Source of the DNA: Longimicrobium sp.
GTDB taxonomy: Bacteria > Gemmatimonadota > Gemmatimonadetes > Longimicrobiales > Longimicrobiaceae
Length of the DNA stretch: 64,000 nucleotides
Direction of reading: 5' to 3'
Assembly: GCA_036398975.1 (NCBI GenBank)
Contig: DASWNZ010000208.1
Span: 292-64,291, forward strand
Every line of letters begins with the position of its first letter. Positions within the stretch are counted from its first letter, which is position 1. The translations under genes and the position numbers were made by a program. Shown here in pieces: positions 1,091 to 60,366 of the stretch. Below the pieces are notes generated by a model. That model was not told the DNA's origin and made no database searches. It saw nothing but the letters and a program-made list of their open reading frames with translations.

Positions 1091-1237
1091 GTGCGTGAGT
1101 GCGTTAGTGCGTGAGTGCGCTGAAAACAGAAGTGCTAAGTGCCAAGTCCTGAGTGCTACACAACCGCAGTTCAGGACTCAGCACTTAGCACTCAGGACTT
1201 CCCCAACGCACTTCCGCACTCACGCACTAACGCACTT
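1091..1237. repeat. octamer-array inverted pair (OCT) with nested inner palindrome
   Basis: Left arm 1091-1120 GTGCGTGAGTGCGTTAGTGCGTGAGTGCGC. Inner arms 1131-1157 / 1173-1199. Right arm 1206-1237 ACGCACTTCCGCACTCACGCACTAACGCACTT. The outer arms share 21 nt of perfect complementarity. Confidence 0.9.
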
Positions 1238-1242
1238 CTTTC

Positions 1243-1593
1243 CTACTCCTCGTCCTCGTCGTCGTCGCCGTGCTCATAGCCGGCGGATTCCTCGGCGAGG
1301 AGCTCCATCAGCTGCGAGCCCCAGGCGCTCTCCAGCAGGCGGCGCACCTTGGGGAAGCGGTCGGTGACCTCCGCCATCTCCGGCGTGACGAACATCTCGA
1401 TGACGTCGCCGCGCTTGTAGGTCCCCGGCTCGGCCTCCTCGAGGAAGGCCTTCAGCTCCTCGATGAGGTCGCGGAGGTCGCTCAGCAGCTCGCCGGGGAA
1501 GTGCCCCTCGTCCAGCGCGACCGCCGACTCCGTCCAGTCGTGCACCTGCGATACCAGCGCGTCGAAACGCGCATCCGCCTTCGGATCAGCCAT
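1243..1593 (-). CDS. hypothetical acidic protein (116 aa)
   Basis: ORF 1243..1653(-). The internal ATG at 1593 (MADPKADARF) is preferred because GGTGAGGAG lies about 9 nt upstream. High GC3, DDDEDEE tail, no family recognised. Confidence 0.55.
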   Translation of the reverse strand: MADPKADARFDALVSQVHDWTESAVALDEGHFPGELLSDLRDLIEELKAFLEEAEPGTYKRGDVIEMFVTPEMAEVTDRFPKVRRLLESAWGSQLMELLAEESAGYEHGDDDEDEE

Positions 1594-1700
1594 TATGCGG
1601 TTCTCCTCACCCTTTGATCTCGACCGGTACACTGCCGTCCCCACGAGCGACACACCCTATCGACCGCGCGCACGCGGGTCAAGTGCGGCGCCCCCGCGAG

Positions 1701-1746
1701 GTGTCCGTTTTTGGGACGGGTTTTTCCCAGCGGCGGGCATGGACAC
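1701..1746. repeat. R7 nested hairpin (GTGTCCG-TTTTGGGACG...TTCCCA...GGACAC)
   Basis: GTGTCCGTTTTTGGGACGGGTTTTTCCCAGCGGCGGGCATGGACAC. Confidence 0.8.
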
Positions 1747-3435: not shown

Positions 3436-3556
3436 GGTGCGCTGGTGCGTGTGTGCGTGAGTGCGTCCCAACGTATTCACGCTCCCGCGCATCCAATGCA
3501 CGAAGCCCTGCCCTGAAGTTCAAAACGCACCAACGCACCAACGCACTCACGCACTT
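3436..3556. repeat. OCT inverted pair inside the adaptor-ATPase spacer
   Basis: Left arm 3436-3466 GGTGCGCTGGTGCGTGTGTGCGTGAGTGCGT. Right arm 3525-3556 ACGCACCAACGCACCAACGCACTCACGCACTT. Six of every 8 nt pair. Confidence 0.85.
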
Positions 3557-3586: not shown

Positions 3587-4327
3587 ATGGAAACCGCAAC
3601 CAAGCCGCTCATCCAGATGGACTCTGTCGGCAAGGTGTTCCTTACCGAAGAGGTGGAGACCCACGCCCTCAACAACGTCCACCTGGAGATCCGCTCCGGC
3701 GAGTACGTGGCGATCGCCGGGCCGTCCGGCTGCGGGAAGACGACGCTCCTCTCCATCCTGGGGCTGCTCGATTCGCCCACGGACGGCACGTACACGCTCA
3801 ACGGGCAGCCGGTGTCCGGGCTCACGGCTTCGCAGCGCGCGCACATCCGCAACCGCGAGATCGGCTTCATCTTCCAGGCGTTCAACCTGATCGGCGACCT
3901 GACCGTGAAGGAGAACGTGGAGCTGCCGCTGACCTACCGCGGGATGCCGGCGGCTGAGCGCAACAAGCGCGTCACCGAGGCGCTGGAGCGGGTGGGGATG
4001 GGTCACCGCGTGGGGCACTACCCGGCGCAGCTCTCCGGCGGCCAGCAGCAGCGCGTTGCCGTGGCGCGCGCCATCGCCGGCACCCCCTCCGTGCTCCTGG
4101 CGGACGAGCCCACGGGTAACCTTGACTCCACCAACGGCGAGCAGGTGATGGGGCTGCTGCAGGAGCTCCACCGCGAGGGCGCCACCATCGTCATGGTGAC
4201 GCACGACCCTCGCTACGCCGAGCACGCCGAGCGCAGCATCCACATGTTCGACGGCCGGGTGGTGCGCGAGGAGCGCTCGTCGGCGGTGGCGGCGGAGCTG
4301 GAGCGGCACGGCTTCGAGGTGGGCTGA
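3587..4327 (+). CDS. MacB/LolD-type ABC transporter ATP-binding protein
   Basis: Part of ORF 3461..4327. The start was moved to ATG 3587 ([10 protein letters not shown]) because the upstream codons translate the octamer repeat (THQRTHAL). Walker [10 protein letters not shown], signature LSGGQQQR, Walker B LLADEPT. Confidence 0.9.
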
Positions 4328-6741
4328 TGGACATCGCGCGGGAGCTTCGCCTTGCAGGGCGGTCGCTGCTGCGCAGCCGCCTCTTCGCCCTCGTCTCCAT
4401 CGCCACCATCGCGCTGGGGATCGGCGCCACGACGACGGTCTTTTCGCTGGTGAACGCCCTCCTCCTGCGCCCCCTTCCCATCGCGCAGCCGGAGCGCGTG
4501 GTGGGGATGCAGGAGACGCTGCGCGGGATGCGGGCGATGTCGATGGGCTACAGCGCGGTCTCGTACCCCCGCTACGTGGCGTATCGCGAGGCCACCGCGG
4601 GGATCTTCACCGGGCTGGCGGCGCAGCGCTACGAGGAGATGTCGCTGCGCGCCTCCGGTCAGGCGCAGGTGCTCACCGGCGTAGTGGCGTCCGGCAACTA
4701 CTGGGAAGTGCTCGGGGTGAGGCCCGCGCTGGGCCGCTTCTTCACCGGCCCCGACGAAAAGGAGCAGCTCGCCGTCATCAGCCACCACCTGTGGCAGACG
4801 CGCTTCGGCGGCGACCCCGGCGTCATCGGGCGCACCGTGCACCTGGACAGCCGCCCGCTCTCCGTGGTGGGCGTCGCGCCGAAGGAGTTCGGGGGGACGC
4901 TGGTGGGCGGCGTGGCGGACGTGTGGGTCACCCTGGGCGCGGCCGGCGTCGGCAGCGCGAACGAGGCGATCAACTCCAATTCCGGCGCCTCCCTCATCCT
5001 CTTCGGCCGCCTGCGGCCGGGGATGACGCAGGAGCGGGCCGGCGCGGCGCTCAAGGTGGCCGCCGCGCGCGTGCCGCTGGAGGAGCCGAACGCCAAGGTG
5101 CTCGACGTCCGCGTGGAGCCGCTGACCGGCGTGCCGGGCGAGATGCGCATGCCCGTGGCCGCGTTCATGGGGCTGCTGCTGGCGACCGCCCTCTTCGTGC
5201 TCCTGATCGCCGGCACCAACGTGGCGGGAATGCTGCTGGCCCGCGCCGTGGCCCGCCGCCGCGAGATGGCGATCCGCCTGGCCGTGGGCGCCACCGGCCG
5301 CAATCTGGTGAGGCAGCTGCTGGGCGAAAGCGTCCTCCTCTTCCTGCTGGGCGGGGGCGCCGGTGTCGTGCTGACGATCTGGCTCACGCGGGTGCTCTCG
5401 TCCATGCAGCCGCCCTTCCCGGCCCGCATCTCCTTCGACCTGCGCCCCGACCCGCGCGTGCTGGGCTTCGCGCTTGCGCTGGCGCTGCTGACCGGCGTGG
5501 CGTTCGGGCTGATGCCGGCGCTGCAGGCCTCGCGCACCGACGTGCTCAGCGGCCTCAAGGACGGCGGCACCCGCGAGGGCGCCCGCCGCGGCCGTCTGCG
5601 CAGCGGGCTCGTGGTGGGGCAGCTCGCCCTGGCCATGCTCCTGATGCTGGTGGCGGGGCTCTTTGGCCGCACGCTGCAGCACTCGATCTCCGCCGACCCC
5701 GGCTTCGTGCCCGAGGGCGTGGCGGTGGCGCGGGTGGACCTGGAGCCGCACGGCTACGACCGCGTGCGCGGCGAGGCCTTCCAGCGCCGGCTGCTGGAGC
5801 GGGTGGCCGCGGCGCCGGGCGTGCGCTCCGCCACCCTGGCCGACTTCGCGCCGATGAGCGGCAACGTGCGCAGCGAAGAGCTGCGCCTGCCGGGCAAGAA
5901 GGAGGCGATCACCGTCAGCATCGACGCGGTGGACCCCGGTTTCTTCGCCACGCTGCAGATCCCGCTGCGCGCCGGGCGCGTCTTTACCGACGAGGACCGC
6001 GAGGGTGCGCCGCCGGTGGCGGTCATCAACCAGACGCTGGCGCAGCGGCTGTGGCCCGGCGCCAGCGCCCTCGGCCGGACCGTGCGGCTTGGCGACGGCC
6101 CGCCGGTTGAAGTGGTCGGAGTGGTCGCGAACGGCACCTACGAGCGCTTCGGCGAGCGGCCGGTCTCCTTCCTCTACCGCCCCGTCGCGCAGAACTACAG
6201 CCCGGGCGTCGCCATCATGGCCCGCGCGGACCGCGGCGCCGGCGCTGCGCTGGAGGCCATCCGCCGCGAGCTGCAGGCGATGGACGCCAACGTCGCCCCC
6301 GAGCAGGCGATGCCGCTGACGTCGATGATCGGCGTGTCGCTCTTTCCGCAGCGCATCGCGGCCTTCTTCATCGGGGGCTTCGGGGTGCTGGGGCTGCTGC
6401 TGGCGTGCATCGGCATCTACGGCGTGCTGGCGTACCAGGTGGGCCAGCGCACGCGCGAGATCGGCGTCCGTGTCGCCCTCGGCGCCCGCGCCGGCGACGT
6501 GGTGCGCATGGTGGTGCGCCACGGCTTTAAGATCACCGCCCTCGGCGCGGCGATCGGCCTGGTGATGGCCGTCGCGGCCACGCGCCTCCTCAGCAGCCTG
6601 CTGTACGGCGTCAGCGCCACCGACCCGCTCACGTTCACGATCGTCCCCGTGCTCTTGCTGGCGGTGGCGCTGGTGGCGTCGTGGCTTCCCGCCCGCCGCG
6701 CCGCGCGGGTGGATCCGATGGTGGCGTTGAGGGCGGAATAG
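4327..6741 (+). CDS. ADOP-type duplicated MacB/FtsX permease (paralogue 1)
   Basis: 804 aa with an ATGA overlap on the ATPase stop. N-terminus RSLLRSRLFALVSIATIALGIGATTTVFS, two FtsX-like halves, C-terminus REIGVRVALGA...[16 protein letters not shown]. Confidence 0.9.
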   Translation: MDIARELRLAGRSLLRSRLFALVSIATIALGIGATTTVFSLVNALLLRPLPIAQPERVVGMQETLRGMRAMSMGYSAVSYPRYVAYREATAGIFTGLAAQRYEEMSLRASGQAQVLTGVVASGNYWEVLGVRPALGRFFTGPDEKEQLAVISHHLWQTRFGGDPGVIGRTVHLDSRPLSVVGVAPKEFGGTLVGGVADVWVTLGAAGVGSANEAINSNSGASLILFGRLRPGMTQERAGAALKVAAARVPLEEPNAKVLDVRVEPLTGVPGEMRMPVAAFMGLLLATALFVLLIAGTNVAGMLLARAVARRREMAIRLAVGATGRNLVRQLLGESVLLFLLGGGAGVVLTIWLTRVLSSMQPPFPARISFDLRPDPRVLGFALALALLTGVAFGLMPALQASRTDVLSGLKDGGTREGARRGRLRSGLVVGQLALAMLLMLVAGLFGRTLQHSISADPGFVPEGVAVARVDLEPHGYDRVRGEAFQRRLLERVAAAPGVRSATLADFAPMSGNVRSEELRLPGKKEAITVSIDAVDPGFFATLQIPLRAGRVFTDEDREGAPPVAVINQTLAQRLWPGASALGRTVRLGDGPPVEVVGVVANGTYERFGERPVSFLYRPVAQNYSPGVAIMARADRGAGAALEAIRRELQAMDANVAPEQAMPLTSMIGVSLFPQRIAAFFIGGFGVLGLLLACIGIYGVLAYQVGQRTREIGVRVALGARAGDVVRMVVRHGFKITALGAAIGLVMAVAATRLLSSLLYGVSATDPLTFTIVPVLLLAVALVASWLPARRAARVDPMVALRAE

Positions 6742-6745
6742 GGAC

Positions 6746-7182
6746 GGAAGTGCCTAGTGCCTAGTGCCTAGTAACGGCAGTGCATGAGTGCGCAGGTGCG
6801 TGAGGCTGGGTTGCGCGGGCGCGTGAGTGCCGGGGCGGCGCGGGTGCGCAGCGGGCGTGGGTTGAGTGCGGGTGCGTGGACGCACCCATGAACTTTGGCG
6901 CCCCCCGTTTCTGTCATCCTGAGCGACGCGCTGCACCGACCTCTGCCCGTCTCCAAACTCTGGCGCGGAGCGAAGGATCTACTGCGCGTGGCGAGGGGCT
7001 CGTGGTCACGGGGCTGTCCTCCTGCCTCACCGGCTAGATCCTTCGCTCGCCGCAGGAGTGTGCGGTACACGGCGGAAGAAGCGGCAGGCGGCTCTCTCAG
7101 GATGACAAAGGGCGCGCGCACCGAGTATACGGCACTAGGCACTAGGCACGAGGCACTAGGCACTTAGCACCCAGCACTTCCC
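6746..7182. repeat. OCT-like inverted pair (heptamer variant AGTGCCT/AGGCACT) enclosing an LRMT element
   Basis: Left arm 6746-6805 GGAAGTGCCTAGTGCCTAGTGCCTAG...GTGCGTGAGG. Right arm 7131-7182 GGCACTAGGCACTAGGCACGAGGCACTAGGCACTTAGCACCCAGCACTTCC. Confidence 0.85.
6913..7106. repeat. LRMT palindromic element (GTCATCCTGAG...CTCAGGATGAC)
   Basis: Terminal inverted repeats GTCATCCTGAGCGACGC / CTCTCAGGATGAC with internal GAAGGATCTACTGCGCG / CTAGATCCTTCGC. About 195 bp. Spurious ORFs over it read VILSDA...LRMT. Confidence 0.85.
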
Positions 7183-7214
7183 GACGCGACCAGACCTTCA
7201 GGAGGAGCATCCCC

Positions 7215-9623
7215 ATGGACTCGCTGATCCAGGACCTCCGCTACGCGATCCGCACCCTTCTGCGCAGCCCCGGCTTCACCCTCGTCGCCGTGCTGACGCT
7301 GGCGCTGGGGATCGGGGCGAACACGGCCATCTTCAGCGTGGTGAACGGGGTGATCCTGCGCCCCCTTCCCTACCCGCAGCCGGAGCAGCTCCGCTACCTG
7401 GCGTGGCAGTGGAAGAACGGCTCCGCAACCAACGCGCTCACCGGCTATCAGTTCGAGTACTGGCGCGAGCACGCGCGCTCCTTTGCGGGGGCGGCGAGCT
7501 TCGATCAACACGCCGCCGAGGTCGCCGGGGGCGGCTTCGCGCAGGGGCTGCGGGGGACGGACGAGTTCCTGGGCGTGCTGGGGGTGAAGCTGGCGCTGGG
7601 ACGCGGCTTCCTTCCCGAGGAGAACCGGCCGGGGGGCCCGCGCGCCGTGATCGTGGGCGATGGAATGTGGCGCACGCGGCTGGGGGCAGACCCGCGGGTG
7701 GTGGGGCGCACGCTGATGCTGGATGGCGAGCCCCACACCATCGTGGGCGTGCTCCCCGCCACCTTCCGCTTCCCGCAGTCGCCGGAGTGGACGGAGTTCG
7801 TCCTTCCGCTCAGGCTCATGGTGGACCGCGAGGACCAGGGGCACAACTCCACCGTGGTGGCCCGCCTTCGCGCCGGGGTGACTCCCCGCCAGGCGGAGGC
7901 GGAAATGGCGGCGCTCTCGGAGCGCTTCCGCCGCGAGAACCCGGAGCTCGCGGGGGCGGGGGAGGGGGTGGCGCTGGTGAGCTACGGCTCCATGTACCTG
8001 GGCGGGCTGCGTACGGTGCTATGGGTGCTGCTGGGCGCCGTGGGCGTGGTGCTCCTGATCGCGTGCGTCAACGTCGCCAACCTTCTTCTGGCCCGCGCCG
8101 CGCGCCGCCACCGCGAGATGGCGGTGAGGGCGGCCGTGGGCGCGGGGCGCGGACGCATCGTCCGCCAGGTGGTCACCGAAGGGGTGGTGCTCGCCCTGCT
8201 GGCCGGCGCCGCCGGGCTGGCGGTGGGGGCGGCGGTGGTTCGCGCGCTGCTGGCGCTCGCCCCGCAACTCCTGCCGCGCACGGACGAGATCGGGCTGGAC
8301 GCGAGGGTGCTCGCCTTCACCCTGCTGGTGGCGCTGGGCACGGGTGTGGTGGCGGGGCTCGCCTCCGCGCTCCCCGCCGCGCGCACCGACCTGGCGGGGG
8401 TGCTGCGCGGCGCCTCGCAGCCGGGCGGCGGGGGGCGCGGCGCGCGCGTGCTGGTAGCCGCGGAGGCCGCGCTGGCCGTGGTGCTCCTGGTGGGCGCGGG
8501 GCTCCTGGCCGGCAGTCTCGCCCGCATGAGCCGGGTGGACCCGGGCTTCCGCGCCGAGCATCTCCTTACCGCGCGCATCCCGCACGTTCCGGAGGGATAC
8601 GGATCCGCGGCCCGCTCCGCCGACTTCGCGGACCGGGTGATGACGCGGGTGCAGGGCACGCCGGGCGTGGTGTCGGTCGCGGCCGTCTCCGCCATACCGT
8701 TCCAGCGCGGGATGAACATCCCGGTGACGGTGGAGGGCCGCCCCGAGGCGACCGAGGGCGCCATCGAGTGGCGCGCGGTGACGCCGGGGTACTTTCGCAC
8801 CCTGGGCATCCCGCTGGCGGCCGGGCGCGACTTCGCGGCAAGCGACGCCGGCGGGGCCCCCGTCATCGCCGTCAACGAGTCCGCCGCGCGGCGCTACTGG
8901 CCCGGCCGCACTCCGCTGGGCGACCGGCTGCGGGTGGGCGCCATGGGCGGCAAGCCGATCCCCGAGCTGGCGGACGTCTCTCGCGAGATCGTGGGGGTGG
9001 TGCGCGACATCCGCGACCAGCGGATGGACCTCCCACCGCGGCGCACGGTGTTCGTGCCGATGGCGCAGGTCCCCGATGCGTACGCCTCCCTCCCTGCCCT
9101 GCTGGTGCGCACCACTGACCCGGCCTCGACGGGCGCGGTGCTGCGCCAGGCCATCCGCGAGGCAGACCCGCGCATGCCCGCTCCCGAGCTGCGCATGATG
9201 GAAGAGGTGGTGGGTGCCACGCTGGCGCAGTCGCGTTTCAACACGCTGCTGATGGGCAGCTTCGCGCTCCTCGCCATGCTCCTGACGGGGGTGGGGATCT
9301 TCGGCGTGGTGTCGTACACGGTGCGCCAGCGCACGCGTGAGATCGGAGTGCGGATGGCGCTCGGCGCCCGCCAGTCCGACGTTCTGGGCGCCGTGGTGAG
9401 GCAGGGGATCCGCCCCGCCGTAGTGGGGCTGGTGGTGGGGCTCGTCGCCGCGGCCGGGCTATCGCGCCTGGTGGCCGGAATGCTCTACGAGGTCAGCCCT
9501 ACCGATCCGCTCACCCTCGGCGCCGTCTCCGTCGCCCTGGTGGGGGTGGCCTTGCTCGCTTCTTACCTCCCCGCGCGGCGCGCCGCGCGCGTGGACCCCA
9601 TAATCGCCCTCCGCTCGGAGTAG
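7215..9623 (+). CDS. ADOP-type duplicated MacB/FtsX permease (paralogue 2)
   Basis: 802 aa. [53 protein letters not shown]...[11 protein letters not shown]...[21 protein letters not shown] lies 10 nt upstream of the ATG. Confidence 0.9.
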
Positions 9624-9630
9624 TTCCGCC

Positions 9631-12054
9631 ATGGACTCGCTGATCCAGGACCTCCGCTACGCGCTGCGCACCCTGCTGCGCAGCCCGGCCTTCACCACCA
9701 TCGCCGTGCTTACGCTGGCGCTGGGGATCGGGGCGAGCACGGCCATCTTCACGGTGGTCAACGGCGTCCTCCTGCGCCCGCTGCCGTACGCGGCGCCGGA
9801 GCGGCTGGTGGAGCTGAAGCACGTCAACGCGGGCGAGGGGGTCACGGACGGCACCTTTTCGGAGCCGGACTTCCTTGACCTGCAGCGCGCCGTGCCCGAG
9901 TTCGCGCAGCTCGGCGGGTTCTGGTACGCGCCGGGCAACAGCACCATGAACCTGATGGGCGACGGCGAGCCGACCGTCCTCTCCGGCGCCTTCGTCACCC
10001 CGGAGTTCTTCCCCGCGATGGGGGTGGCCGCCGAGGTGGGTCGCACCCTGCGTGCGGACGAGGGCGTGACCGGCGGGCCCAAGGCCATCGTGCTGAGCCA
10101 CGGCCTGTGGACGCGCCGCTACGGCGGCGACCGCTCGGTGGTGGGGCGCCGCGTGCAGCTCGACGGCGACGCCTTCACCGTCGTGGGGGTGATGCCGCCC
10201 TCCTTCCAGTACCCGGCGCGCGAGGTGGACGCCTGGATCCCGCTCGCCGTCTTCGGCCCCGACGACATCGGGCGGTCGCGCGACAGCCGCTTCCTGACCG
10301 TCGTCGGGCGGCTGGCGCCGGGCGCGGAGCTCGCCGCCGTCCGCAAGAAGACCGATGCCGCGCTGGCCGGTCTGGCCCGCCAGTATCCGGCCACCAACGA
10401 AGGGTGGGGCTCGGCCGCCGTCGTTCCGCTCTCGGATGCGCTGCTGGGGCGGGTACGGCCGGCGCTCCTGGTGCTGCTGGGCGCGGTGGTGCTCGTGCTG
10501 CTCATCGCCTGCGCCAACCTGGCGAACCTCCTCTTCGTTCGCAGCACCGCCCGCAGCCGCGAGACGGCGATCCGCGTGGCGCTGGGGGTGAAGCGCGGCC
10601 GGCTGATCCGCCAGCACCTCGCCGAGAGCTTCCTGCTGGCGGCGGCGGGCGGGCTGCTGGGCTTCGGGCTGGCGCTGATGGGCGTCGACTGGCTGCTGGC
10701 GTTGGGCGCGGGCGACCTGCCGCGCGCCGACAACATCCGCCCCGACGCGCGCGTGGCGGCCTTCGCCCTGGCCGCGGTGCTGGGGACGGCGGCGATGTTC
10801 GGGGCGTGGCCCGCCATCCGCGCATCGCGCGGCGAGCCGGGGCAGGCGCTGCGGGCCGGCGGGCGCGGCGGCAGCGAGGGTCGCGAGCGCGCCGCGGCCC
10901 GCAACGGCATCGTCGTGGCCGAGACGGCGCTGGCGGTCGTGCTGCTGATGGGCTCCGGGCTCATGCTCAAGAGCCTGTGGCGCCTGGCGAACGTGGACCC
11001 CGGCTTCCGCGCCGAGAAGGTGCTGACGATGAGCGTCTCCCCGCCGGAGATGGAGGGCGGGGCGATGGAGCGGATCGCGTACCGCAACCGCATCATGGAG
11101 CGCGTGCGGCAGGTGCCCGGCGTGGTGGCGGTGGGCGCCAGCAAGACGCTCCCGCTGCACGGCGGAGGCGAGGCGTACACCTTTGGCCTGAACGACCGGC
11201 CGGGGGTGGAGGTCAAGCCCGACGCGGGGCTCTTCATGGTGACGCCCGAGTACTTCCGCGCGCTGGGGATCCGCCTCATGCGCGGGCGCGACTTCAGCGA
11301 GTCCGTGGAGCGCGACCGGCTGAGCGTGGTGGTCAACCGCTCCCTCGCCGACCGCCTGTGGCCGGGGCAGGACCCGATCGGCAAGACGCTCCATTTCGCG
11401 CCCATCGAGTCCGACCTGACGGTGATCGGGGTGGCGGACAACGTGCGCACCGAGGGGCTGGCGGCGGAGCCGGGCGGGGCCCTGTACGTGTCGATGAACG
11501 GCCCCTTCTCGCGCAGCGCCACCAAGCTCTTCGTGCGCACCCAGGGCGACCCCGCGGCGATGGCGGGCGCGGTGACGGCCGCGATACACGAGGTGGCGCC
11601 GAATCAGCCCATCGTGGGCGTGACCACGCTGCGGCAGCTGGTGGCGGGCACCATCGCGGAGCCGCGCATGTTCGCCATCCTGACGGCGGTGTTCGGCGCG
11701 GCGGCGCTGGGGCTGGCGCTGCTGGGGATCTACGGCGTCATCTCGTACACGGTGGCGTGGCGCACGCGCGAGATCGGCATCCGCATGGCACTGGGGGCGG
11801 AGGCGCCGTCGGTGCTGCGCATGGTGATGAAGTGGACGCTGGGGCTGACCGCGTGGGGCGTGCTGGCCGGGCTGGTGGCGGCGCTGGTGCTCACGCGCGT
11901 CCTGAGCAGCCAGCTCTACGGCGTCTCGCCCACCGATCCGGCGACGTTTGCCGTGGTGGTGGTCCTGCTCGTCGGCGCGGCCCTGTTCGCCAGCTGGTTC
12001 CCGGCCCGGCGCGCGTCGAAGGTGGACCCGATGATCGCGCTGCGCTCCGAGTAA
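9631..12054 (+). CDS. ADOP-type duplicated MacB/FtsX permease (paralogue 3)
   Basis: 807 aa. Its first 33 nt are identical to paralogue 2 ([11 protein letters not shown]). C-terminus REIGIRMALGA...ARRASKVDPMIALRSE. Confidence 0.9.
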   Translation: MDSLIQDLRYALRTLLRSPAFTTIAVLTLALGIGASTAIFTVVNGVLLRPLPYAAPERLVELKHVNAGEGVTDGTFSEPDFLDLQRAVPEFAQLGGFWYAPGNSTMNLMGDGEPTVLSGAFVTPEFFPAMGVAAEVGRTLRADEGVTGGPKAIVLSHGLWTRRYGGDRSVVGRRVQLDGDAFTVVGVMPPSFQYPAREVDAWIPLAVFGPDDIGRSRDSRFLTVVGRLAPGAELAAVRKKTDAALAGLARQYPATNEGWGSAAVVPLSDALLGRVRPALLVLLGAVVLVLLIACANLANLLFVRSTARSRETAIRVALGVKRGRLIRQHLAESFLLAAAGGLLGFGLALMGVDWLLALGAGDLPRADNIRPDARVAAFALAAVLGTAAMFGAWPAIRASRGEPGQALRAGGRGGSEGRERAAARNGIVVAETALAVVLLMGSGLMLKSLWRLANVDPGFRAEKVLTMSVSPPEMEGGAMERIAYRNRIMERVRQVPGVVAVGASKTLPLHGGGEAYTFGLNDRPGVEVKPDAGLFMVTPEYFRALGIRLMRGRDFSESVERDRLSVVVNRSLADRLWPGQDPIGKTLHFAPIESDLTVIGVADNVRTEGLAAEPGGALYVSMNGPFSRSATKLFVRTQGDPAAMAGAVTAAIHEVAPNQPIVGVTTLRQLVAGTIAEPRMFAILTAVFGAAALGLALLGIYGVISYTVAWRTREIGIRMALGAEAPSVLRMVMKWTLGLTAWGVLAGLVAALVLTRVLSSQLYGVSPTDPATFAVVVVLLVGAALFASWFPARRASKVDPMIALRSE

Positions 12055-12069
12055 GCGCGGAACTGCCGG

Positions 12070-12133
12070 CTCACGCGGAGGCGCGGAGGCGCGGAGGAAG
12101 GAGCTCTCTGCGCCTTTGCGTTTTGGGCGTGAG
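12070..12133 (+). repeat. R5 palindrome (CTCACGCGGAGGCGCGGAGG...GCGTGAG), terminator-like, plus-strand biased
   Basis: Lies between convergent stops (12054 + and 12184 -). The 3' arm CTCTGCGCCTTTGCGTTTTGGGCGTGAG pairs with the 5' arm using several G-U wobbles that would be C-A mismatches on the other strand. Confidence 0.8.
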
Positions 12134-12183
12134 GCAGGCAGTCGAGGCAGGGCAGCGGGCGGGCGCGGCTAACAAAGACAGAA

Positions 12184-12783
12184 TCAGGAACCGGGGATCA
12201 GCTGCGGCATCAAGTCATCGAACAGGACGTGGTCCCAGCAAGCGTTGCGTAGCTCGTACGCGTGCCCCTTGAACCAGGCGTGAGTGACCTGCTTCATGCG
12301 CTGTCCCAGGAACTCCACGGCGGGTACGTGGTCCGCGTCGGCGGCGATCAGCACCGCGCGATCATAATGGCCGTCGATCCCGATGCGGATCAGGTCTGTG
12401 GCCAGTGCCGTGTCGATTCCTTTCTCGACCGTGCGCTGGATGTTCTGCTGGCAGTGCGGGCAGCTCGTGATCGGCTGGCGGCAGTTGGGGCACTTGATCG
12501 GACCCTGCGGTTTGCGTTCCTTGACGAGGACATCGTACCCGGGAAAACCGTCCATCACGTTGAAGAAGCGGCGCAGCCCGTTGTCCGCCGCGTTGTTGGG
12601 ATCGTATGAGGCATAGACGTGCGTGCCCGCGTACACGGCCGCGGGGTCGATCTGGCGCACCAGCGTCTCGTACAGCAACGGCTTCCAGGGGATCCGGACG
12701 ATGCCCCTCGCGCCCTTCTTCTGGTGGTAGTCGTTCCAGGAGAGCTGGAAGTTCCAGAAGTCGATGAAGATTTTTACGCGCAT
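12184..12783 (-). CDS. NYN (LabA/DUF88-like PIN-fold) domain protein with inserted CxxC...CxxC zinc ribbon
   Basis: 199 aa. NYN acidic motifs VKIFIDFWNF, GIDTALATDLI and LIAADADHVPAVEFL. Inserted CPNCRQPITSCPHCQQ. Visibly lower GC than its neighbours and on the opposite strand to the flanking permease genes. Confidence 0.8.
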   Translation of the reverse strand: MRVKIFIDFWNFQLSWNDYHQKKGARGIVRIPWKPLLYETLVRQIDPAAVYAGTHVYASYDPNNAADNGLRRFFNVMDGFPGYDVLVKERKPQGPIKCPNCRQPITSCPHCQQNIQRTVEKGIDTALATDLIRIGIDGHYDRAVLIAADADHVPAVEFLGQRMKQVTHAWFKGHAYELRNACWDHVLFDDLMPQLIPGS

Positions 12784-12802
12784 CGCGGGATGGGGTTAGG
12801 GC

Positions 12803-12831
12803 AAAAAAACAGGGAGCCTTGCGGCTCCCTG
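12803..12831 (-). terminator. intrinsic terminator inside the NYN gene leader
   Basis: Minus strand reads CAGGGAGCC GCAA GGCTCCCTG TTTTTTT (9-bp stem, GNRA loop, U7). It ends 19 nt before the NYN ATG at 12783. Confidence 0.8.
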
Positions 12832-13200: not shown

Positions 13201-13212
13201 GGTGGCGGCAAG

Positions 13213-49057: not shown

Positions 49058-49165
49058 CTCCCCTATTCCGTGATAAGAGCGCCCCGCGGATTCCGTCCGC
49101 CGGGCGCTCGAAAGGTCGTTGGTCCAGCGGCGGGGAAGATGGCGCCCGAGGCGGCGGGCGCGCCA

Positions 49166-49220
49166 GCCCCCTCCCCCGCTCGTTCCTCGCGGCCCCTCCC
49201 CCAAACCGCGGGGGAGGGGC
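49166..49220. repeat. R6 repeat, inverted orientation
   Basis: GCCCCCTCCCCCGCTCGTTCCTCGCGGCCCCTCCCCCAAACCGCGGGGGAGGGGC. Confidence 0.85.
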
Positions 49221-50347: not shown

Positions 50348-50353
50348 CGAGAA

Positions 50354-50544
50354 AAGTGCGTGAGTGCGTTAGTGCGTGAGTGCGTTGGAACAGCGGGCCT
50401 CACGCAGAGGCGCAGAGACGCAGGAGTAGGCGCGGAGGTCTCTCCTGCGTCTCTGCGCCTCTGCGTGAGATTGCCATTTATCGTCGGAGCAGATCTCTGG
50501 TGAGCGGCGCCACGCACTGACGCACTAACGCACTCACGCACTAT
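50354..50544. repeat. OCT inverted pair enclosing an R5 palindrome
   Basis: Left arm 50354-50388 ends 6 nt from the qor-like ATG. Right arm 50511-50544 overlaps the amidase stop. 23 nt of perfect complementarity (ACGCACTAACGCACTCACGCACT). Confidence 0.9.
50399..50469. repeat. R5 palindrome (CAGAG variant)
   Basis: CTCACGCAGAGGCGCAGAGACGCAGGAG...CTCCTGCGTCTCTGCGCCTCTGCGTGAG. Near-perfect hairpin. Confidence 0.85.
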
Positions 50545-52357: not shown

Positions 52358-53761
52358 ATGCACGCTCCGCGCATCGCCGTACCCTTTGCCCTCGCCGCGC
52401 TCGTGGCGCTGGCGGCCTGCTCCGACGGACCCGCGTCGCCCGATCCTGTGGCGCCGGCCGTGTCGCGCGCGGGGCAGCCGATCCCCACCCGCGCACAGGA
52501 GCGCCCCGGCACCTGGGTGGAGCGCACCGACGAGCAGCTCTGGGCCGCCATCTCTGCCGCGGGCGGGAACGCGGCGGTGGGGCTCAAGTCGCCGGGCGCG
52601 GTGCGCGGCGTGTGGCGCGGGCGGGTGCTGGTGGGGCGCAGCGAGTGGTCGCAGGGGCGCGCGGCCGTGGCGTCGCAGCCGGGCGTGACGCTGGTGCGCA
52701 CGGACGACCTCCTTCCCTCGATGGAGGTTCAGCTGGACGGGCCCGGCGCGCTGGCCGCCCTGCGCCGCCTTCCGTTCGTCGACTACGTGGAGCCGACGAT
52801 GGTGGAGGACGGCCTCCCCGAGTTCGCGGGCGTGGGCGGGTGCGGATGGGGGAGCGCGTGGACGGGAGACCGGCAGTACACCGCGTCGGGCGACGTATAC
52901 TCGCAGAAGCTCACCGCCATGCGCATCCCCGATGCGTGGACGCTGAGCAGCGGCGCGGGCGTCACCATCGGCCTCACGGACACGGGGATCTCTTCCGGCC
53001 AGGGGCAGTTCACCAGCACCTTTGCCACGGGTGAGAGCGCCGGGCGCACGCTGAAGCTCCTCAAGGTGTCGTCGATGTCCAGCGTGTACGACGGATGCGG
53101 CCACGGCACGCGCATGGCCGGCATCATCGCCGCGCCGCGCGACGGGCGCAGCGTGGGCGGCATCGCGTACCGCTCCAACTTCGTGAGCGTGCGCCAGGCG
53201 GACGGCGTGGCCACCGTCTCCAGCAGCGACGCCAAGTACAGCGTGCGCGCCGCCGCGGAGAACGGCGCCCGCATCGTGGTGATGGCGTGGGAGTCGCTGA
53301 ACTGGTACTGGCAGGTGTCCGACGAGATCGAGTACTGGCACTACAACTACCCGATCCTCTTCTTCGGCGCCGCGGGCACCAGCGGGTGCGGCGACGGCAT
53401 CCTGGACAGCAACGTCGTCTTCCCGGCGGACATGCCCGAGGTGGTGGCGGTCACGGGCGTGACGTACCCGGGCGGCGGCGTCCCCTGCGGCATCCATCGC
53501 GGCTCGGACGTGGAGCTGACGGCGTACCTGGACGTCCCCAGCACGGGCCAGTACACCGCCGACGTGGTGGGGATGGGCGGCAGCTCCAACGCCACCGCCA
53601 TCGTGGGGGCGGTGGCGGCGCTGGTCTGGTCGCGCACCCCTAGCCTGACGCGCGACGGCGTTCGCCAGCGCCTGATCCAGACCGCGCAGTACTACCCGAA
53701 CCGGCACTCGGAACAGGGCTACGGGCTGATCAACGCGTATCGCGCGGTGGCGGGGAACTGA
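52358..53761 (+). CDS. S8 (subtilisin-like) serine peptidase, lipoprotein
   Basis: 467 aa. Lipobox LVALAAC. Asp TIGLTDTGIS, His GHGTRMAG, Ser MGGSSNATAIVG. Confidence 0.8.
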   Translation: MHAPRIAVPFALAALVALAACSDGPASPDPVAPAVSRAGQPIPTRAQERPGTWVERTDEQLWAAISAAGGNAAVGLKSPGAVRGVWRGRVLVGRSEWSQGRAAVASQPGVTLVRTDDLLPSMEVQLDGPGALAALRRLPFVDYVEPTMVEDGLPEFAGVGGCGWGSAWTGDRQYTASGDVYSQKLTAMRIPDAWTLSSGAGVTIGLTDTGISSGQGQFTSTFATGESAGRTLKLLKVSSMSSVYDGCGHGTRMAGIIAAPRDGRSVGGIAYRSNFVSVRQADGVATVSSSDAKYSVRAAAENGARIVVMAWESLNWYWQVSDEIEYWHYNYPILFFGAAGTSGCGDGILDSNVVFPADMPEVVAVTGVTYPGGGVPCGIHRGSDVELTAYLDVPSTGQYTADVVGMGGSSNATAIVGAVAALVWSRTPSLTRDGVRQRLIQTAQYYPNRHSEQGYGLINAYRAVAGN

Positions 53762-53817
53762 ATCGGGAATCGGGAATGGGGAATGGGAACGGCTGATTGG
53801 ATCGCCGTTCCCATTCC
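53762..53817. repeat. GGGAAT(C/G) heptamer run merging into a 14-bp hairpin
   Basis: ATCGGGAATCGGGAATGGGGAATGGGAACGGC tgattggatc GCCGTTCCCATTCC, between convergent stops 53761 (+) and 53823 (-). Probable bidirectional terminator, but with weak U tracts. Confidence 0.6.
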
Positions 53818-54902: not shown

Positions 54903-54986
54903 TCACACAGAGACACAGAGGGGCAAGGAAAGAACAGAGAAGATTTTCTCTGCGCCTTGCAGTTCCCTCTGTGCCCTCTGTGTGAG
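54903..54986. repeat. R5 palindrome (CACAGAG variant) between convergent genes
   Basis: TCACACAGAGACACAGAGG...CCCTCTGTGCCCTCTGTGTGA. Lies between the stops at 54897 (+) and 54992 (-). Confidence 0.85.
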
Positions 54987-56312: not shown

Positions 56313-56381
56313 CTCACGCGGAGGCGCGGAGAACGCAGAGAACTCCGCCACCTCTTCCGCGTCTCCGCGTCTCCGCGTGAG
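56313..56381. repeat. R5 palindrome
   Basis: CTCACGCGGAGGCGCGGAGAACGCAGAG...CTTCCGCGTCTCCGCGTCTCCGCGTGAG, just downstream of the stop at 56391 (-). Confidence 0.85.
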
Positions 56382-57158: not shown

Positions 57159-57169
57159 CGTGGTGAAGG

Positions 57170-60151
57170 TCAGGGTTGCGACGCGGTCGTCGTCGCGCCG
57201 GTGGACGTGGCCGGGGCGCCGGGCTGCGGCACCTCGGCGGCGGGGAGCACCTGGTCGCGACCCTTGTTCAGGAAGGGGACGCCCTGGCGCATCCAGTCCG
57301 GCTGCGGGCGGCCCTTGAGGTGGTGATCGAAGAACTGCATCATCCGAATCGCGAGGTCCACCTGGTTGGCGCGCTTGGTGGGGTTGTGCTCGTCGCCGTT
57401 GTAGTTGATCAGGTACACCTCCTTCCCCAGCCGCCGCAGCGCCACGAACATCTCGATCCCCTGGTACCAGGGCACCGCGCCGTCGTTGTCGTTGTGCATG
57501 ATCATCAGCGGCGTCTGGATGCGGTCCGCGGCGAAGAGCGGTGAGTTCTCGATGTACAGCTCCCGGTTCTGCCACGGCGTGGCGCCGATGCGGCTCTGCC
57601 CGCGCTCGTACTGGAAGGCGCGCGCGAGGCCGCTCTGCCAGCGGATGCCGCCGTACGCGCTCGTCATGTTGGCCACCGGCGCTCCCGCCATCGCCGCGCG
57701 GAACATGGGGGTGCGGGTGATCATGTACGCCACCTGGTAGCCGCCCCACGACTGCCCCTGGATCGCCACCTTCGCCGAGTCCACGAAGCCGCGCCCGATC
57801 AGCGAGCGCACGCCGGGGACGATGGAGCGCATTGCGCTCTGCCCCGGATAGCCGGTGGTGTAGTGGATGTCCGGCATGAACACCAGGTAGTCGTTCGACG
57901 CGTACAGCGTGGGCTGGATGGTGTTGCGCGGCACGTCCATCCGGTACTGGTGCAGGTTGTCCGAGAGCGACTCGTAGAAGTAGACCACCATCGGGTACTT
58001 CTTCGAAGGATCGAACCCTTCCGGCTTGTAGAGGAGCCCCTGCAGGTCGGCGCCGTCCTCGGACCGCCAGCTCACCAGCTCCACGCTCGGCCAGCGGTAG
58101 CGCGACTGCTGCGGGTTCGCCTCGCTCATCCGCCGCGCATCGGCAAAGGTGGCGCCGCTTACCCACACGTCCGGGAATTCGCGGACGGTCTGCCGCGTCC
58201 ACAGGTAAACGTCGGCTTCACGGGCCTTGCTGGGAGTGCCGAGCTGCCGGTCTTCCATCACCAGCCGCACCGGCGCGGCGTCGGAGCCCAACTGGTCGCG
58301 GAAGTACCCGCTGGCCTTGGTGTCCTCGTTGAAGACGCGCAGCAGCAGCGGCTGGCGCGGGTCGATGGAGCGCTCCTCGGGGTCCAGGTCCACCCAGCGG
58401 AACACCATCTTCCCGCGGCGGCCGGCGGAGTCGGTCACCACGCGGGCGGGGCGGCGGCCGGCGGGGTCCAGCTCCCACACGTCGAAGCGGTCGTAGACGA
58501 GCACCGAGCGGTCGCCCTGCGTCCAGCCGGCGACGCCCCAGGGGGCGGGATCGGAGGGGGTGTCCCACGTCTCCTGGTCGAAGCGCACGCCCAGCCGCCC
58601 CGTGAGGTCCGTGGTGCGCCCGGTGGCGACGTCATAGGAGTGCCAGCGGCGGTCGCGGTCGAAGAAGAGGACGAAGCGGCCGCCGGGGGAGAGCTGCGGG
58701 TCGAAGGGGATGCGCGTGGCCACGGGACGGCGCGCGCCGGTGCGGGTGTCGATGGCGTACACGTCCGCGCCGCCCTCGCCCCACATCGCCTGCACGCCGT
58801 AGCGCATCTCGTCGCTCGCGATGGCGACGCGCCCGTCGTCGGAGAGCTGCACCCCGCGCAGGGTGTCGTTGCCGATGACCACCGGCCGCTCGCCGGGGCG
58901 CACGATGGCCGTCCACGCGCTGTCGCGGTCGCGCGCGGCTTCCACGCGCTGCTGCGGCTGCAGGCGCGGATCGCGGTAGTTCCACAGGTCGAAGACGGCC
59001 TTGTCCGCCAGCGAGTCGGCGGGGATGGAGTCGGGGGTCACGGGGATGACGCCGAACACCACCGCGCCTCCGTCCTCGGTAAAGCGGATGCGGCCCCGCT
59101 CCGCCACCATCCGCCCGCTCCCCACCTGGTCCGCATCCACCACGCGGCGCACGCGCGGCTCGCCGCCGCCGAGGGACGCGTGGTACAGCGCGGAGAGCGG
59201 CTTGTCGCGGTCGCGCGAGTCGCGGTCGGTGGTGAAGGCCGCCTGGCGCCCGTCGTCGCTGAAGGTGAGGCCGCGGTAGCCGCCCGCGCCGGCCAGCAGC
59301 GTGTGCGTGCGCCCGCCGGCGAGGTCGCGCAGGTAGGCGCCGTCACTGTCGTCGCGGCGCGCGGCGACGGTGTACCCCAGCCAGCGCCCGCCCCGGTCCA
59401 GGGTGAACGCCGTCACCTCCTCGATGCGCGTCTCGTTACCCGTCTGCAGGTCGCGCAGGACGAGGGTGGAGCCGAAATCCTTTTTCTTGCCGCCGCGCGC
59501 GGTGTCCGTGCTCACCGGACGCGGGGTGCCGCCGGGCGTCGCCGCCGCGGCCGGTGCCTGCCCTGGAGCAGCCGCCGCCACTGCCGCCGCCGTGTCGCGG
59601 GCGGTGCGGGCGGCGGTGCTGTCGGTCTCCAGCAGATACGCCAGCCAGCGCCCGTTCTCCTCTGGCATGCGGAACGACCGCACGCGCGGCACCACCGTCA
59701 CGCGCCCGTCCGCGAGGCTCATGATCCCCAGCGACGAGCGGGGCATGTCCGCCGGCTTGCGGCGCTCGCGGCGGGCGCGGTCCCACTCGGATCGCGGGGC
59801 TTCGATGGAGAAGACGGCGAAGCGCCCGTCGGCCGAGAACTGCGCGCGGGAGGGCTGGTAGCCGGCCTCGGGGCCGGTGGCGCCGGCGCGGGTCTGCGGG
59901 CGGCCCACGTAGCCACGCGTGTGGCGATGCTCGGCCCCGCCGGTGGTGGAGCGCACCACCACCTCGCCGTCGCCCACCTGCGGCACCAGGGTGTACACCG
60001 CCCAGCGCCCATCGCGCGAAAGGGTGGCGCCGTGCACCGACCGCCACTGGTCGAAGTCGGCCACCGTGATCGCCCGGCGGCCCTCCTGGGCCATGGCGGG
60101 AACGGCGCCCAGCCAGAGCGCGGTCAGAAAAAGCGAAGCTCTGCGTTTCAT
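57170..60151 (-). CDS. S9 family serine peptidase with N-terminal beta-propeller
   Basis: ATG 60151 (MKRRASLFLTALWLGAVPAMAQ signal peptide) within ORF 57170..60346; upstream codons translate the octamer repeat. Nucleophile GQSWGGY, Asp HNDNDGAVP, His GDEHNP. Confidence 0.9.
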   Translation of the reverse strand: MKRRASLFLTALWLGAVPAMAQEGRRAITVADFDQWRSVHGATLSRDGRWAVYTLVPQVGDGEVVVRSTTGGAEHRHTRGYVGRPQTRAGATGPEAGYQPSRAQFSADGRFAVFSIEAPRSEWDRARRERRKPADMPRSSLGIMSLADGRVTVVPRVRSFRMPEENGRWLAYLLETDSTAARTARDTAAAVAAAAPGQAPAAAATPGGTPRPVSTDTARGGKKKDFGSTLVLRDLQTGNETRIEEVTAFTLDRGGRWLGYTVAARRDDSDGAYLRDLAGGRTHTLLAGAGGYRGLTFSDDGRQAAFTTDRDSRDRDKPLSALYHASLGGGEPRVRRVVDADQVGSGRMVAERGRIRFTEDGGAVVFGVIPVTPDSIPADSLADKAVFDLWNYRDPRLQPQQRVEAARDRDSAWTAIVRPGERPVVIGNDTLRGVQLSDDGRVAIASDEMRYGVQAMWGEGGADVYAIDTRTGARRPVATRIPFDPQLSPGGRFVLFFDRDRRWHSYDVATGRTTDLTGRLGVRFDQETWDTPSDPAPWGVAGWTQGDRSVLVYDRFDVWELDPAGRRPARVVTDSAGRRGKMVFRWVDLDPEERSIDPRQPLLLRVFNEDTKASGYFRDQLGSDAAPVRLVMEDRQLGTPSKAREADVYLWTRQTVREFPDVWVSGATFADARRMSEANPQQSRYRWPSVELVSWRSEDGADLQGLLYKPEGFDPSKKYPMVVYFYESLSDNLHQYRMDVPRNTIQPTLYASNDYLVFMPDIHYTTGYPGQSAMRSIVPGVRSLIGRGFVDSAKVAIQGQSWGGYQVAYMITRTPMFRAAMAGAPVANMTSAYGGIRWQSGLARAFQYERGQSRIGATPWQNRELYIENSPLFAADRIQTPLMIMHNDNDGAVPWYQGIEMFVALRRLGKEVYLINYNGDEHNPTKRANQVDLAIRMMQFFDHHLKGRPQPDWMRQGVPFLNKGRDQVLPAAEVPQPGAPATSTGATTTASQP

Positions 60152-60281
60152 ACGTCGGGATGGCGGCGAAAGGGTGGCGCGGGACCCCGGGGCGGGGAAC
60201 AGGCGTATACGTAGCACCGGCGGCGGGGCGGGGGCAAGCGGGGGGCGGGCGTTGGGCGCGGGGCGGGGGTTTTGCGTAGGG

Positions 60282-60366
60282 GTGCGTGAGTGCGTTAGTG
60301 CGTGAGTGCGTTTAACAAACGGCTCTTCCCTGGCGCACTGACGCACTGACGCACTAACGCACTTCC
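60282..60366. repeat. OCT inverted pair in a divergent promoter spacer
   Basis: Left arm 60282-60311 carries the same 29-mer as at 1091 and 50356. Right arm 60333-60366 GCGCACTGACGCACTGACGCACTAACGCACTTCC, 15 nt before the sixA ATG. Confidence 0.9.

Follow-up and report, generated by a model that had tools for sequence, protein, structure and literature searches.

Tandem arrays of 7-8-nt units occur as inverted pairs in the intergenic spacers of a 64,000-nt stretch of Longimicrobium sp. DNA (contig DASWNZ010000208.1, positions 292 to 64,291; hereafter the window), and our analysis indicates that these pairs are very probably copies of a discrete, family-wide hairpin element specific to the Longimicrobiaceae. 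As judged from the sequences compared, the canonical element is about 76 nt long, with approximately four AGTGCGTK octamers, a loop of 10-20 nt and approximately four MACGCACT octamers (type A). The element combines a small palindromic intergenic repeat with a simple-sequence repeat (SSR) and is undescribed as far as we could find. We regard it as a relative of the small repeat elements, namely the repetitive extragenic palindromes (REPs) and their inverted doublets (REPINs) and the miniature transposable elements with inverted repeats (MITEs), and not as a wholly new kind of system.

Scanning the window for (ACGCACTN)x3 with up to 2 mismatches gave 26 matches versus 0.00 expected from dinucleotide-preserving shuffles, and the same arrays were recovered by Tandem Repeats Finder (TRF) and by an independent chain search. 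They formed seven inverted pairs and two singles (24894-24924 and 43400-43430), every one of them located in a spacer according to a gene map drawn from third-position GC content. An earlier note, made from the sequence alone, had listed these seven pairs and both unpaired arrays, and its coordinates were reproduced by the pattern scan, TRF and the independent scan. Also as it had described, the AGTGCGT-type arm was always on the left and the ACGCACT-type arm always on the right in all pairs of the window, the arms of the 50.4 kb pair shared a perfect run of 23 nt, and an exact 29-mer recurred at 1091, 50356 and 60282, to which we could add a fourth copy on the minus strand (18738-18766). The proposal that the arms clamp each spacer into one large stem-loop was borne out by RNA folding in 7/7 spacers: on either strand, the predicted minimum-energy structure paired both arms, with 14-31 arm-to-arm base pairs.

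An exact-pattern scan of one genome per species returned at least 115 stretches. Among the matches listed, about 100 came from Longimicrobium, Longimicrobiaceae or other Gemmatimonadota, and the few from other phyla (Streptomyces, Verrucomicrobiota and others) were single unpaired (GACGCACT)n runs. The pattern was rare in viral contigs, with 16 stretches in 2.9 million. Four type-A matches, spread over three sites (3819-3841, 5663-5709 and 2259-2281, the last in L149), were carried by one 30-kb viral-classed contig (IMGVR_UViG_3300036770_005734, represented by L146 and L149), which may be a prophage of Longimicrobium or a chromosomal fragment wrongly classed as viral.

The window and the 115 listed loci were then pooled (116 sequences) and neighbouring arrays lying within 1 kb were compared. 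The order 5'-(AGTGCGTN)n...(NACGCACT)n-3' was found in 48/48 neighbouring arrays and the opposite order in none. The arm-to-arm gap had a minimum of 10 nt and was ≤18 nt in 12 of the 48 pairs, and the commonest form, seen in 17/48, had 4+4 units. In the complete chromosome OY969570.1 the copies were near-uniform, with four units per arm and G,T,G at the variable position, and their loops were close to the consensus TTAACCGCGGTTCA, itself near-palindromic. At four loci of the window and in other genomes, arms of 29-31 nt were identical and had the same G,T,G pattern, an identical 31-mer arm being found at unrelated loci and in different genomes. Because the gaps start at 10 nt, the 4+4 form is the commonest and the same arm recurs, we take a compact palindrome to be the basic entity, in place of the long-range pair bracketing a spacer that the earlier note had proposed. 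A palindrome reads alike on both strands, and if the copies descend from one founder the strict left/right rule would therefore be expected. The outer flanks, rich in purines on the left side (GGAAGA, GAACGGA) and in pyrimidines on the right side (TCTTCC, TCCGTTC), are mutually complementary and lengthen the stem; the arm-only stems had a mean energy of about -55 kcal/mol.

Some readings of the arrays could be discarded outright: a CRISPR-like locus, as the units are contiguous and lack spacers; a coding repeat, given the 8-nt period; and a replication-oriented (Chi/KOPS-like) motif, as the element reads alike on both strands.

Hairpins at the borders of genes

The arrays had been reported to be paired and to lie at the borders of coding sequences (CDS), and this held in related genomes, both in the 48/48 polarity given above and in the placement of the arms. 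Among the stop-facing arms, the median distance from the stop codon to the first unit was 5 nt and 60/87 lay within -9 to +11 nt, the bases in between being few and purine-rich. In about 15 cases the array itself provided the stop, either as AGT GCG TGA or as a TAG/TAA/TGA overlapping the first AG, and the 8-nt period is such that three units put TGA or TAG in all three frames. The start-facing arms had an in-frame ATG within 16 nt in 20/79 cases, start calls being approximate, and the linker from arm to ATG was usually short, pyrimidine-rich and without a Shine-Dalgarno sequence, as in ACGCACT-TCTTCC-ATG at 18775-18784. At several operon junctions the element made up the entire spacer (18222-18781 in the window and 20457-20570 in L134). 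The gene context of the pairs was co-directional in 30, convergent in 4 and divergent in 4 (n=38), which is near the ordinary mix.

Within the window, the stop-to-arm distance was 5-7 nt at 3428, 6741 and 18221 and 4-6 nt at 1243 and 32472, with an overlap at 50541, and the arm-to-ATG distance was 6 nt (18782), 7 nt (50347), 18 nt (60382) or 31-32 nt (3587, 7215); these values were equal to, or below, those given in the earlier note. In pair 1, the left arm, (AGTGCGTN)x4 at 1090-1120, holds the exact 29-mer, and the right arm, (NACGCACT)x4 at 1206-1236, terminates 6 nt short of the stop (1243) of a gene on the minus strand. The earlier note had missed that this pair is one continuous nested palindrome and not two arms with an unrelated gap. 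Its inner palindrome pairs 1130-1157 (AAGTGCT AAGTGCC AAGTCCT GAGTGCT) with 1173-1200 (AGGACTC AGCACTT AGCACTC AGGACTT) around the centre ACACAACCGCAGTTC; these inner heptamer arms, which surround AACCGCAGTT, belong to the same nested hairpin and are not a foreign insert, and the 159-nt region gave a fold energy of -86 to -98 kcal/mol. Pair 2 has its left arm (3436-3466) 7 nt past the stop (3428) of an HlyD-family gene and its right arm (3525-3555) 31 nt ahead of the ATG (3587) of an ABC ATPase gene, with GGAG in between.

Pair 3 (6746-6805/7131-7182) is, as had been noted, a heptamer variant with AGTGCCT/AGGCACT units. Its left side consists of (AGTGCCT)x3 at 6749-6769, within 6746-6805, starting 7 nt past a stop (6741), and additionally of a partnerless octamer array (6779-6801); its right arm, (AGGCACT)n at 7131-7182, lies 32 nt ahead of an ATG (7215). 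The left arm of pair 4 (18227-18257) begins 5 nt past the stop of an ABC ATPase gene (TGA, 18219-18221), and the right arm, (ACGCACTN)x5 at 18737-18775, is followed by TCTTCC and the ATG of a permease gene (18782), without a Shine-Dalgarno sequence. In pair 5 the left arm, of 3 units (32165-32189), comes directly after a terminator-like hairpin with TTTT, 55 nt past the stop at 32109, and the right arm, of about 2.5 units (32445-32467), ends 4 nt before the stop (32472) of a convergent ferredoxin gene.

Pair 6 has its left arm (50355-50385, with the exact 29-mer inside) 7 nt upstream of the ATG (50347) of a minus-strand alcohol-dehydrogenase-family (ADH) gene, and the last unit of its right arm (50512-50542) overlaps the TAG stop of a minus-strand amidase gene. 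Pair 7 is a near-canonical copy with a 21-nt loop, formed by a left arm at 60281-60311, again with the exact 29-mer, and a right arm at 60333-60363, 18 nt ahead of the ATG (60382) of a histidine-phosphatase gene and also without a Shine-Dalgarno sequence. Both unpaired arrays are of the right type: (ACGCACTA)x4 at 24894-24924 is upstream of a sigma-54 response-regulator gene, and (ACGCACTC)x4 occupies 43400-43430. The sequence GGCGTGCGTTGGTGCGCGT (27804-27840), directly after the stop of a histidine-kinase gene, looks like a decayed type-A left arm without a right partner, and such decayed single arms may be common.

Other dispersed repeats, present at further loci too, made up the long pairs' interiors. 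One is a MITE-like element of about 200 bp, TGTCATCCTGAG...CTCAGGATGACAAA, with an internal GAAGGATCT...AGATCCTTC inverted repeat and no obvious target duplication, which was also found in L008, L041, L054, L056 and L133. In the window, every full copy was inside a type-A pair (6912-7109 in pair 3, 18340-18534 in pair 4, where the remaining interior is a mosaic of other dispersed repeats, and 32216-32410 in pair 5), and one copy in L133 was outside a pair. The interiors also included terminator-like hairpins of a second family (type B, see below), heptamer arrays and G-rich palindromes; for instance, a type-B hairpin, CTC(ACGCAGAG)n...(CTCTGCGY)nGAG, is nested in the loop of pair 6 (50399-50469). 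Nine related strains retained both arms of the spacer 18222-18781 while its interior ranged from 390 to 679 nt by insertion or deletion of modules, and, in general, interiors differed between strains by insertions and deletions and the arms stayed put. We infer that the interior repeats were inserted later, material accumulating in the loop as the arms remained at the gene borders. Partial loss of a pair is consistent with the two unpaired arrays. The segment 43185-43539 keeps half a MITE-like element (43226-43309) and a right arm only, as one would expect had its left arm been lost by deletion.

Further repeats were seen in or near the same spacers. A dispersed palindromic family, CCCCTCCCCC...GGGGGAGGGG with a conserved CGCGAGGAACGAGCGGGGG, occurs at 13345-13400, 28040-28095, 39430-39490 and 49160-49215 of the window and at 9320-9465 of L134, where it sits at the place of the left arm of pair 7 in the window. 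The dispersed motif GGCACGGGCAGCCACGTGGGGCGGCCCCTACGGG (relative GGACACGGGCGCGATGAATCGCGCCCCTAC) was found in long spacers (about 13225-13260, 18640-18675, 24785-24825 and 27855-27890), often just inside type-A right arms. The stop of a DUF4097 gene is immediately followed by about four tandem copies of a degenerate, TGGTGCGATGTATCG-like 15-nt repeat (24589-24647), which shares its spacer with the unpaired 24894 array and is conserved yet divergent among strains.

Variation between strains and between species

One metagenomic contig (L117) was 99.995% identical to the window and other contigs were 90-97% identical, two of them coming from Longimicrobium sp. bins. Among strains at 90-97% nucleotide identity, every array site was conserved but the copy number was not, and the number of units in the same spacer ranged from 2 to 11 (6779 array), from 5 to 11 (7131 arm) and from 4 to 7 (18227 arm). 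The unit counts of the two arms of a pair were not positively correlated (rho = -0.39), from which we conclude that slippage acts on each arm separately. The sole difference between strains at the level of whole arms was in L126, without the right arm of the 50.4 kb pair. Arrays lacking a partner were kept in all strains (24894, 43400 and the inner 6779 array), as was the left arm that remains in L126. Such hypervariable arms could serve as strain-typing markers, and they probably cause contigs to break and metagenome bins to be mis-assembled.

Copy-number variation of this kind agrees with the suggestion of the earlier note that the element had grown by slippage, and one could go further and regard the arrays as pure SSRs that arose by local slippage from chance seeds, without copying between loci. 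These genomes do hold many different 7-8-nt units, and long SSRs of 5-11 nt, heptamers above all, are enriched in some bacteria (Mrazek et al. 2007, as summarised in PMC4679880). Yet slippage does not account for the origin of the family, given the identical 31-mer arm at unrelated loci and in different genomes, the 29-31-nt arms shared by four loci of the window, the 48:0 polarity and a partner arm that always matches. Since matched inverted arrays occur at dozens of unrelated spacers, local growth cannot alone explain the family, and we strongly disfavour this explanation, to which we give next to no weight.

The strains also differed in their permease genes. The paralogues of the ADOP type (MacB_PCD + FtsX, about 800 aa) encoded at 4327-23618 of the window vary in number and order among L116, L118, L120 and L121 (90-97% identity): 7390-9629 of the window is missing in L116, L118 and L121 have one extra permease each, and most breakpoints lie within paralogous coding sequence. 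In L118, the array corresponding to 24894 is (ACGCACYA)x8 and comes directly after the stop of the extra permease gene. It is conceivable from this that the arrays delimit gene cassettes, (ACGCACTN)n-gene(s)-(NAGTGCGT)n, as inverted recombination sites shuffling genes such as those for the ADOP/MacB permeases, the more so as arrays alternate strictly along the window and each gene block is also flanked by inverted arms. The compact copies with loops of 10-20 nt, however, show that the arms of one spacer belong together, the other permease differences map inside paralogous coding sequence and not at arrays, and the gene blocks between arrays vary greatly in size and consist of ordinary housekeeping genes; we consider cassette shuffling very improbable.

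Across species, we found at least 6 different unit types, each with an exactly complementary partner arm. They include AGTGCGAR/YTCGCACT and AGTACGRR/YYCGTACT in L135, AGTGCCK/MGGCACT in L133 and in pair 3 of the window, AGGGAAC/GTTCCCT in L134, and GAATSGG/CCCATTC at 53760 of the window. Two orthologous junctions retained a tandem-unit hairpin despite a changed unit. The first runs from the stop of the amidase gene to the start of the ADH gene and has hairpins of different units at 50348-50540 of the window and at 36-183 of L135. The second is the spacer between the convergent peptidase S8 and DUF3006 genes, where the window (53762 onward) and L134 (1808-1913) likewise differ in their units: in the former, the TGA stop of the peptidase S8 gene contains the beginning of (GAATCGG/GAATGGG)x4 (53760-53817), whose pairing partner is GCCGTTCCCATTCC, and in the latter, (AGGGAAC)4...(CTGTTCC)4 extends from stop codon to stop codon. 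What persists at these junctions thus appears to be the hairpin rather than its sequence.

Occupancy varied as well. Between the peptidase S9 and histidine-phosphatase (His_Phos_1) genes, a hairpin occupies the spacer of the window and that of L133, L134 has a remnant, and L135 and L136 have neither; the latter two have a GGAG-type Shine-Dalgarno sequence there and the hairpin-bearing orthologues have none. Between the CHAD-domain and peptidase M16 genes, L133 has a filled spacer and the window an empty one.

These comparisons bear on another interpretation, in which each array would be an independent, outward-facing site for a protein reading tandem 8-nt units in DNA or RNA, for instance as a polar roadblock or insulator, and pairing would be a by-product of each gene border receiving one array. 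Such sites would account for arms that adjoin genes at any arm-to-arm distance, for unpaired arrays kept in all strains and for the independent copy number of the two arms of a pair, and the TAACTGA heptamers found just upstream of starts in Beggiatoaceae have been interpreted similarly (PMC4679880). On the other hand, a reader of fixed sequence would not predict units that differ between species while the arms stay complementary, the 12/48 compact pairs with loops of 10-18 nt and the predominance of the 4+4 form fit one palindromic unit better, and no candidate protein was identified, so that we hold this interpretation to be improbable.

The same spacers are occupied by further tandem-unit hairpin families that the earlier note had missed. 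The type-B family reads CTC(RCRCRGAG)2-4, approximately 10 nt of loop and (CTCYGYGY)2-4GAG, with a polarity of 37:0 across related genomes; its members usually lie about 10 nt after stops, with A-rich upstream and T-rich downstream flanks, and from its sequence type B looks like a repeated bidirectional terminator. Besides the copy nested in pair 6, type-B hairpins are found in the window at 12070-12133, 13105-13193, 39312-39395, 44828-44950, 54903-54986 and 56313-56381. The one at 13105-13193 holds a perfect (GGAGGCGCG)x6 nonamer array (13112-13166), and between it and the hairpin at 12070-12133 lies a minus-strand gene for an NYN-domain (PIN-like nuclease) protein (12184-12783) which, together with its surroundings, is absent from several sister strains. 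Altogether, about 15/41 spacers of at least 60 nt in the window are built from tandem-unit hairpins. Gemmatimonadota are among the most abundant phyla in soil, and to our knowledge almost nothing is known of their non-coding DNA, a large share of whose intergenic part would be built from such hairpins.

Origin, possible role and relatives of the element

On the whole we favour, with a confidence somewhat above even, a combined account in which a dispersed, non-autonomous palindromic repeat exerts a REP-like stem-loop effect. The founder would have been a palindromic repeat with tandem-unit arms that dispersed in the Longimicrobiaceae without mobilising functions of its own. Replication slippage would then alter the unit number of each arm independently, as the strain comparison shows, and small repeats may enter the loop, pushing the arms up to about 500 nt apart while still beside genes. 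As the unit drifts, the arms would probably stay matched either because pairing is selected for or because the template is switched across the palindrome, template switching across quasi-palindromes being an established mutational process. Any transcribed copy would form a stem of about -50 kcal/mol starting where the ribosome stops, because copies typically sit 0-8 nt after stops and often 5-30 nt before the next start. From this position and stability, we tentatively suggest, with less confidence than in the combined account, that the stem-loops at transcript 3' ends and between cistrons may act as exonuclease barriers or stabilisers, as partial terminators and as masks over the downstream start.

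Several observations weigh against this account. With respect to dispersal, strains at 90-97% identity were not seen to differ in the presence or absence of any whole element, and the mobility we propose is drawn from between-species differences only. No transposase or other mobilising gene was found. No family recurred in the loops and inter-array intervals of 250-3500 nt, whose translations were either junk or those of ordinary genes. In 1.1 Mb sampled from many genomes, a motif screen detected no HUH/RAYT-like (REP-associated tyrosine transposase) open reading frame (ORF), only one out-of-frame false match, RAYTs being present in one to a few copies per genome. No parent insertion sequence (IS) with matching ends turned up among the loops, the inter-array intervals and the 1.1 Mb sampled, and the borders of compact copies showed no target-site duplication. 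Moreover, the elements keep much closer to stops than they would had they been inserted into spacers at random, so that some targeting rule or selection must act. The identity of type-A arms was 0.84 both within and between pairs, and pair-specific co-evolution was not seen.

With respect to function, sense and antisense stem energies were equal in the 30 co-directional pairs (Wilcoxon p = 1.0) and there was no G-U bias; as stems are not stabler on the sense strand, they lack the G-U signature of RNA-level selection. The outward flanks were about 2-fold T-enriched over background, with ≥4 T in 9 nt in 23% of type A and 41% of type B, and given this low proportion most type-A copies are not canonical intrinsic terminators. 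The occurrence of elements between divergent genes and the persistence of single arms further weaken a purely RNA-level function.

The tight placement may instead be read as the signature of a host-selected RNA device for translational coupling or hand-over. In such a device, the stem would hide a start codon lacking a Shine-Dalgarno sequence until the terminating ribosome melts its base, and would also join stop and start over any spacer length; in a variant, the stem of about 31 bp would be cleaved by RNase III. We liken the principle to the long-range coupling structures of phage MS2 and the geometry to the ribosomal shunt of cauliflower mosaic virus. The stop lies 0-8 nt before the stem, or within the first unit, in most stop-facing cases, the 20/79 start-facing arms with a close ATG have it 5-16 nt past the stem, mostly without a Shine-Dalgarno sequence, and the junctions at which the element is the whole spacer fit the same scheme. 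So do the histidine-phosphatase orthologues, which have either a hairpin or a GGAG-type Shine-Dalgarno sequence, the 30/38 pairs of known context between co-directional genes, and the amidase-to-ADH hairpin, which persists, its unit change compensated, in a species with 55% identity in the CHAD protein. But 30/38 is approximately the ordinary co-directional share, elements are also found at convergent and divergent pairs, and the stems are not stabler on the sense strand. In addition, the junctions at 3587 and 7215 of the window have a normal Shine-Dalgarno sequence between arm and ATG, single arms persist partnerless and start-codon calls are approximate.

We judge coupling unlikely. Its most elaborate form, a modular operon wiring used throughout the lineage, appears less likely again: downstream translation would depend on upstream termination through the stem, or on the RNase III release of a short CA-rich leader, in an arrangement that tolerates insertions and is heritably tuned by slippage of the arms, which would be built and matched by tandem units and template switching without a transposase. 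If coupling were true, the element would be a natural insertion-tolerant translational coupler. Returning to the combined account of a dispersed repeat with REP-like effects, the near-nucleotide precision at stops and starts in any event raises questions about termination, mRNA stability and Shine-Dalgarno-independent initiation in Gemmatimonadota. The gene-border placement and the compensated unit changes are surprising, and no new mechanism is demonstrated by them.

The statement that no described class has this architecture stood in part. No Rfam family matched at gathering thresholds over the whole window, and the open-access papers searched gave no account of hairpins with tandem-unit arms, be it in Gemmatimonadota or in other organisms. 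Several known classes, however, share parts of it: REP/REPIN and the bacterial interspersed mosaic elements (BIMEs), MITEs and long SSRs. In BIMEs, REPs combine with other motifs into mosaics, and the roles proposed for REPs are mRNA stabilisation, termination and supercoiling. REPINs are inverted doublets that constitute the replicative unit and form a hairpin in single-stranded DNA or mRNA (PMC3116915), and REPs, which carry a GTAG/CGTC tag, are located for the most part downstream of coding sequence, where the neighbouring genes are co-directional or convergent (PMC3733652). The Longimicrobium element resembles them as an over-represented, extragenic, hairpin-forming inverted doublet that takes part in mosaics. 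Yet a REP unit is an imperfect palindrome of 20-40 bp, whereas here each arm is a non-self-complementary tandem array of 7-8-nt units that behaves as a microsatellite; the REP tag is not conserved in the Longimicrobium flanks, placement at stops and starts is much tighter, and no RAYT was detected in the 1.1 Mb sampled.

With MITEs, the element shares its short, non-coding and dispersed nature, inverted ends that fold into a hairpin, nested insertions and an occupancy varying between species. It differs in that no target-site duplication, parent IS or close-strain polymorphism was found, and in that its 'terminal repeats' are nearly the whole element and internally repetitive. Like intrinsic terminators, it has a GC-rich stem just past the stop, a T-enriched tail and two-way symmetry; unlike them, the type-A tail is only weakly T-rich, loops are short in the compact copies alone and reach hundreds of nt in others, and copies are also placed before starts and between divergent genes.

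Mycobacterial interspersed repetitive units (MIRUs) are tandem repeats in operon spacers that touch the stop and start codons beside them and whose copy number differs from strain to strain. Their units measure 40-100 bp, are direct, contain small ORFs coupling translation and have no hairpin architecture. Both MIRUs and the Longimicrobium element fill operon spacers and vary in copy number, and only the latter has hairpin arms. Each arm alone fits the description of a long SSR (a 5-11-nt head-to-tail unit, beyond chance, non-coding and variable), a description that does not cover the pairing. The likeness extends to the short tandemly repeated repetitive (STRR) heptamers of cyanobacteria and to the TAACTGA sequences, which are also dispersed, intergenic, lineage-restricted tandem units of 7-8 nt with few units per site. 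The TAACTGA repeats of Beggiatoaceae, cyanobacteria and Bacteroidetes lie a few nt upstream of starts, in spacers without canonical ribosome-binding sites, as 169 direct sets and one indirect set (PMC4679880). In contrast to these direct repeats, the defining features in Longimicrobium are the matched inverted partner and the tight linkage to stop codons. Stem-loops within operons have also been reported to set subunit ratios in ABC-transporter operons (PMC9045158).

Other features of the window

The window has 71% GC. Its products include numerous 'ADOP' permeases (MacB/FtsX) and a sigma-54 activator, together with Rho, Hsp33 and further housekeeping proteins; genes for tRNA or tmRNA were not found in it. 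The sequence TGTCCGnTTTTGGGACGnnnnTTTCCC occurs three times (1702-1728, 13398-13424 and 17360-17386; 0 expected), each time upstream of a gene or operon for a MacB/ADOP transporter. Within these copies, TGGGACG-N4-TTTCC resembles a sigma-54 -24/-12 promoter, and a sigma-54 activator and a histidine kinase are encoded at 24992-27803. Finally, in a region otherwise of 71% GC, a locally AT-rich stretch (e.g. TAAGTTATTCGTCATTGATTTCGCGAAGTATATAACGTATATC) precedes HTH_3 and Fic/DOC genes at 42057-43184, which could be a toxin-antitoxin or acquired module.

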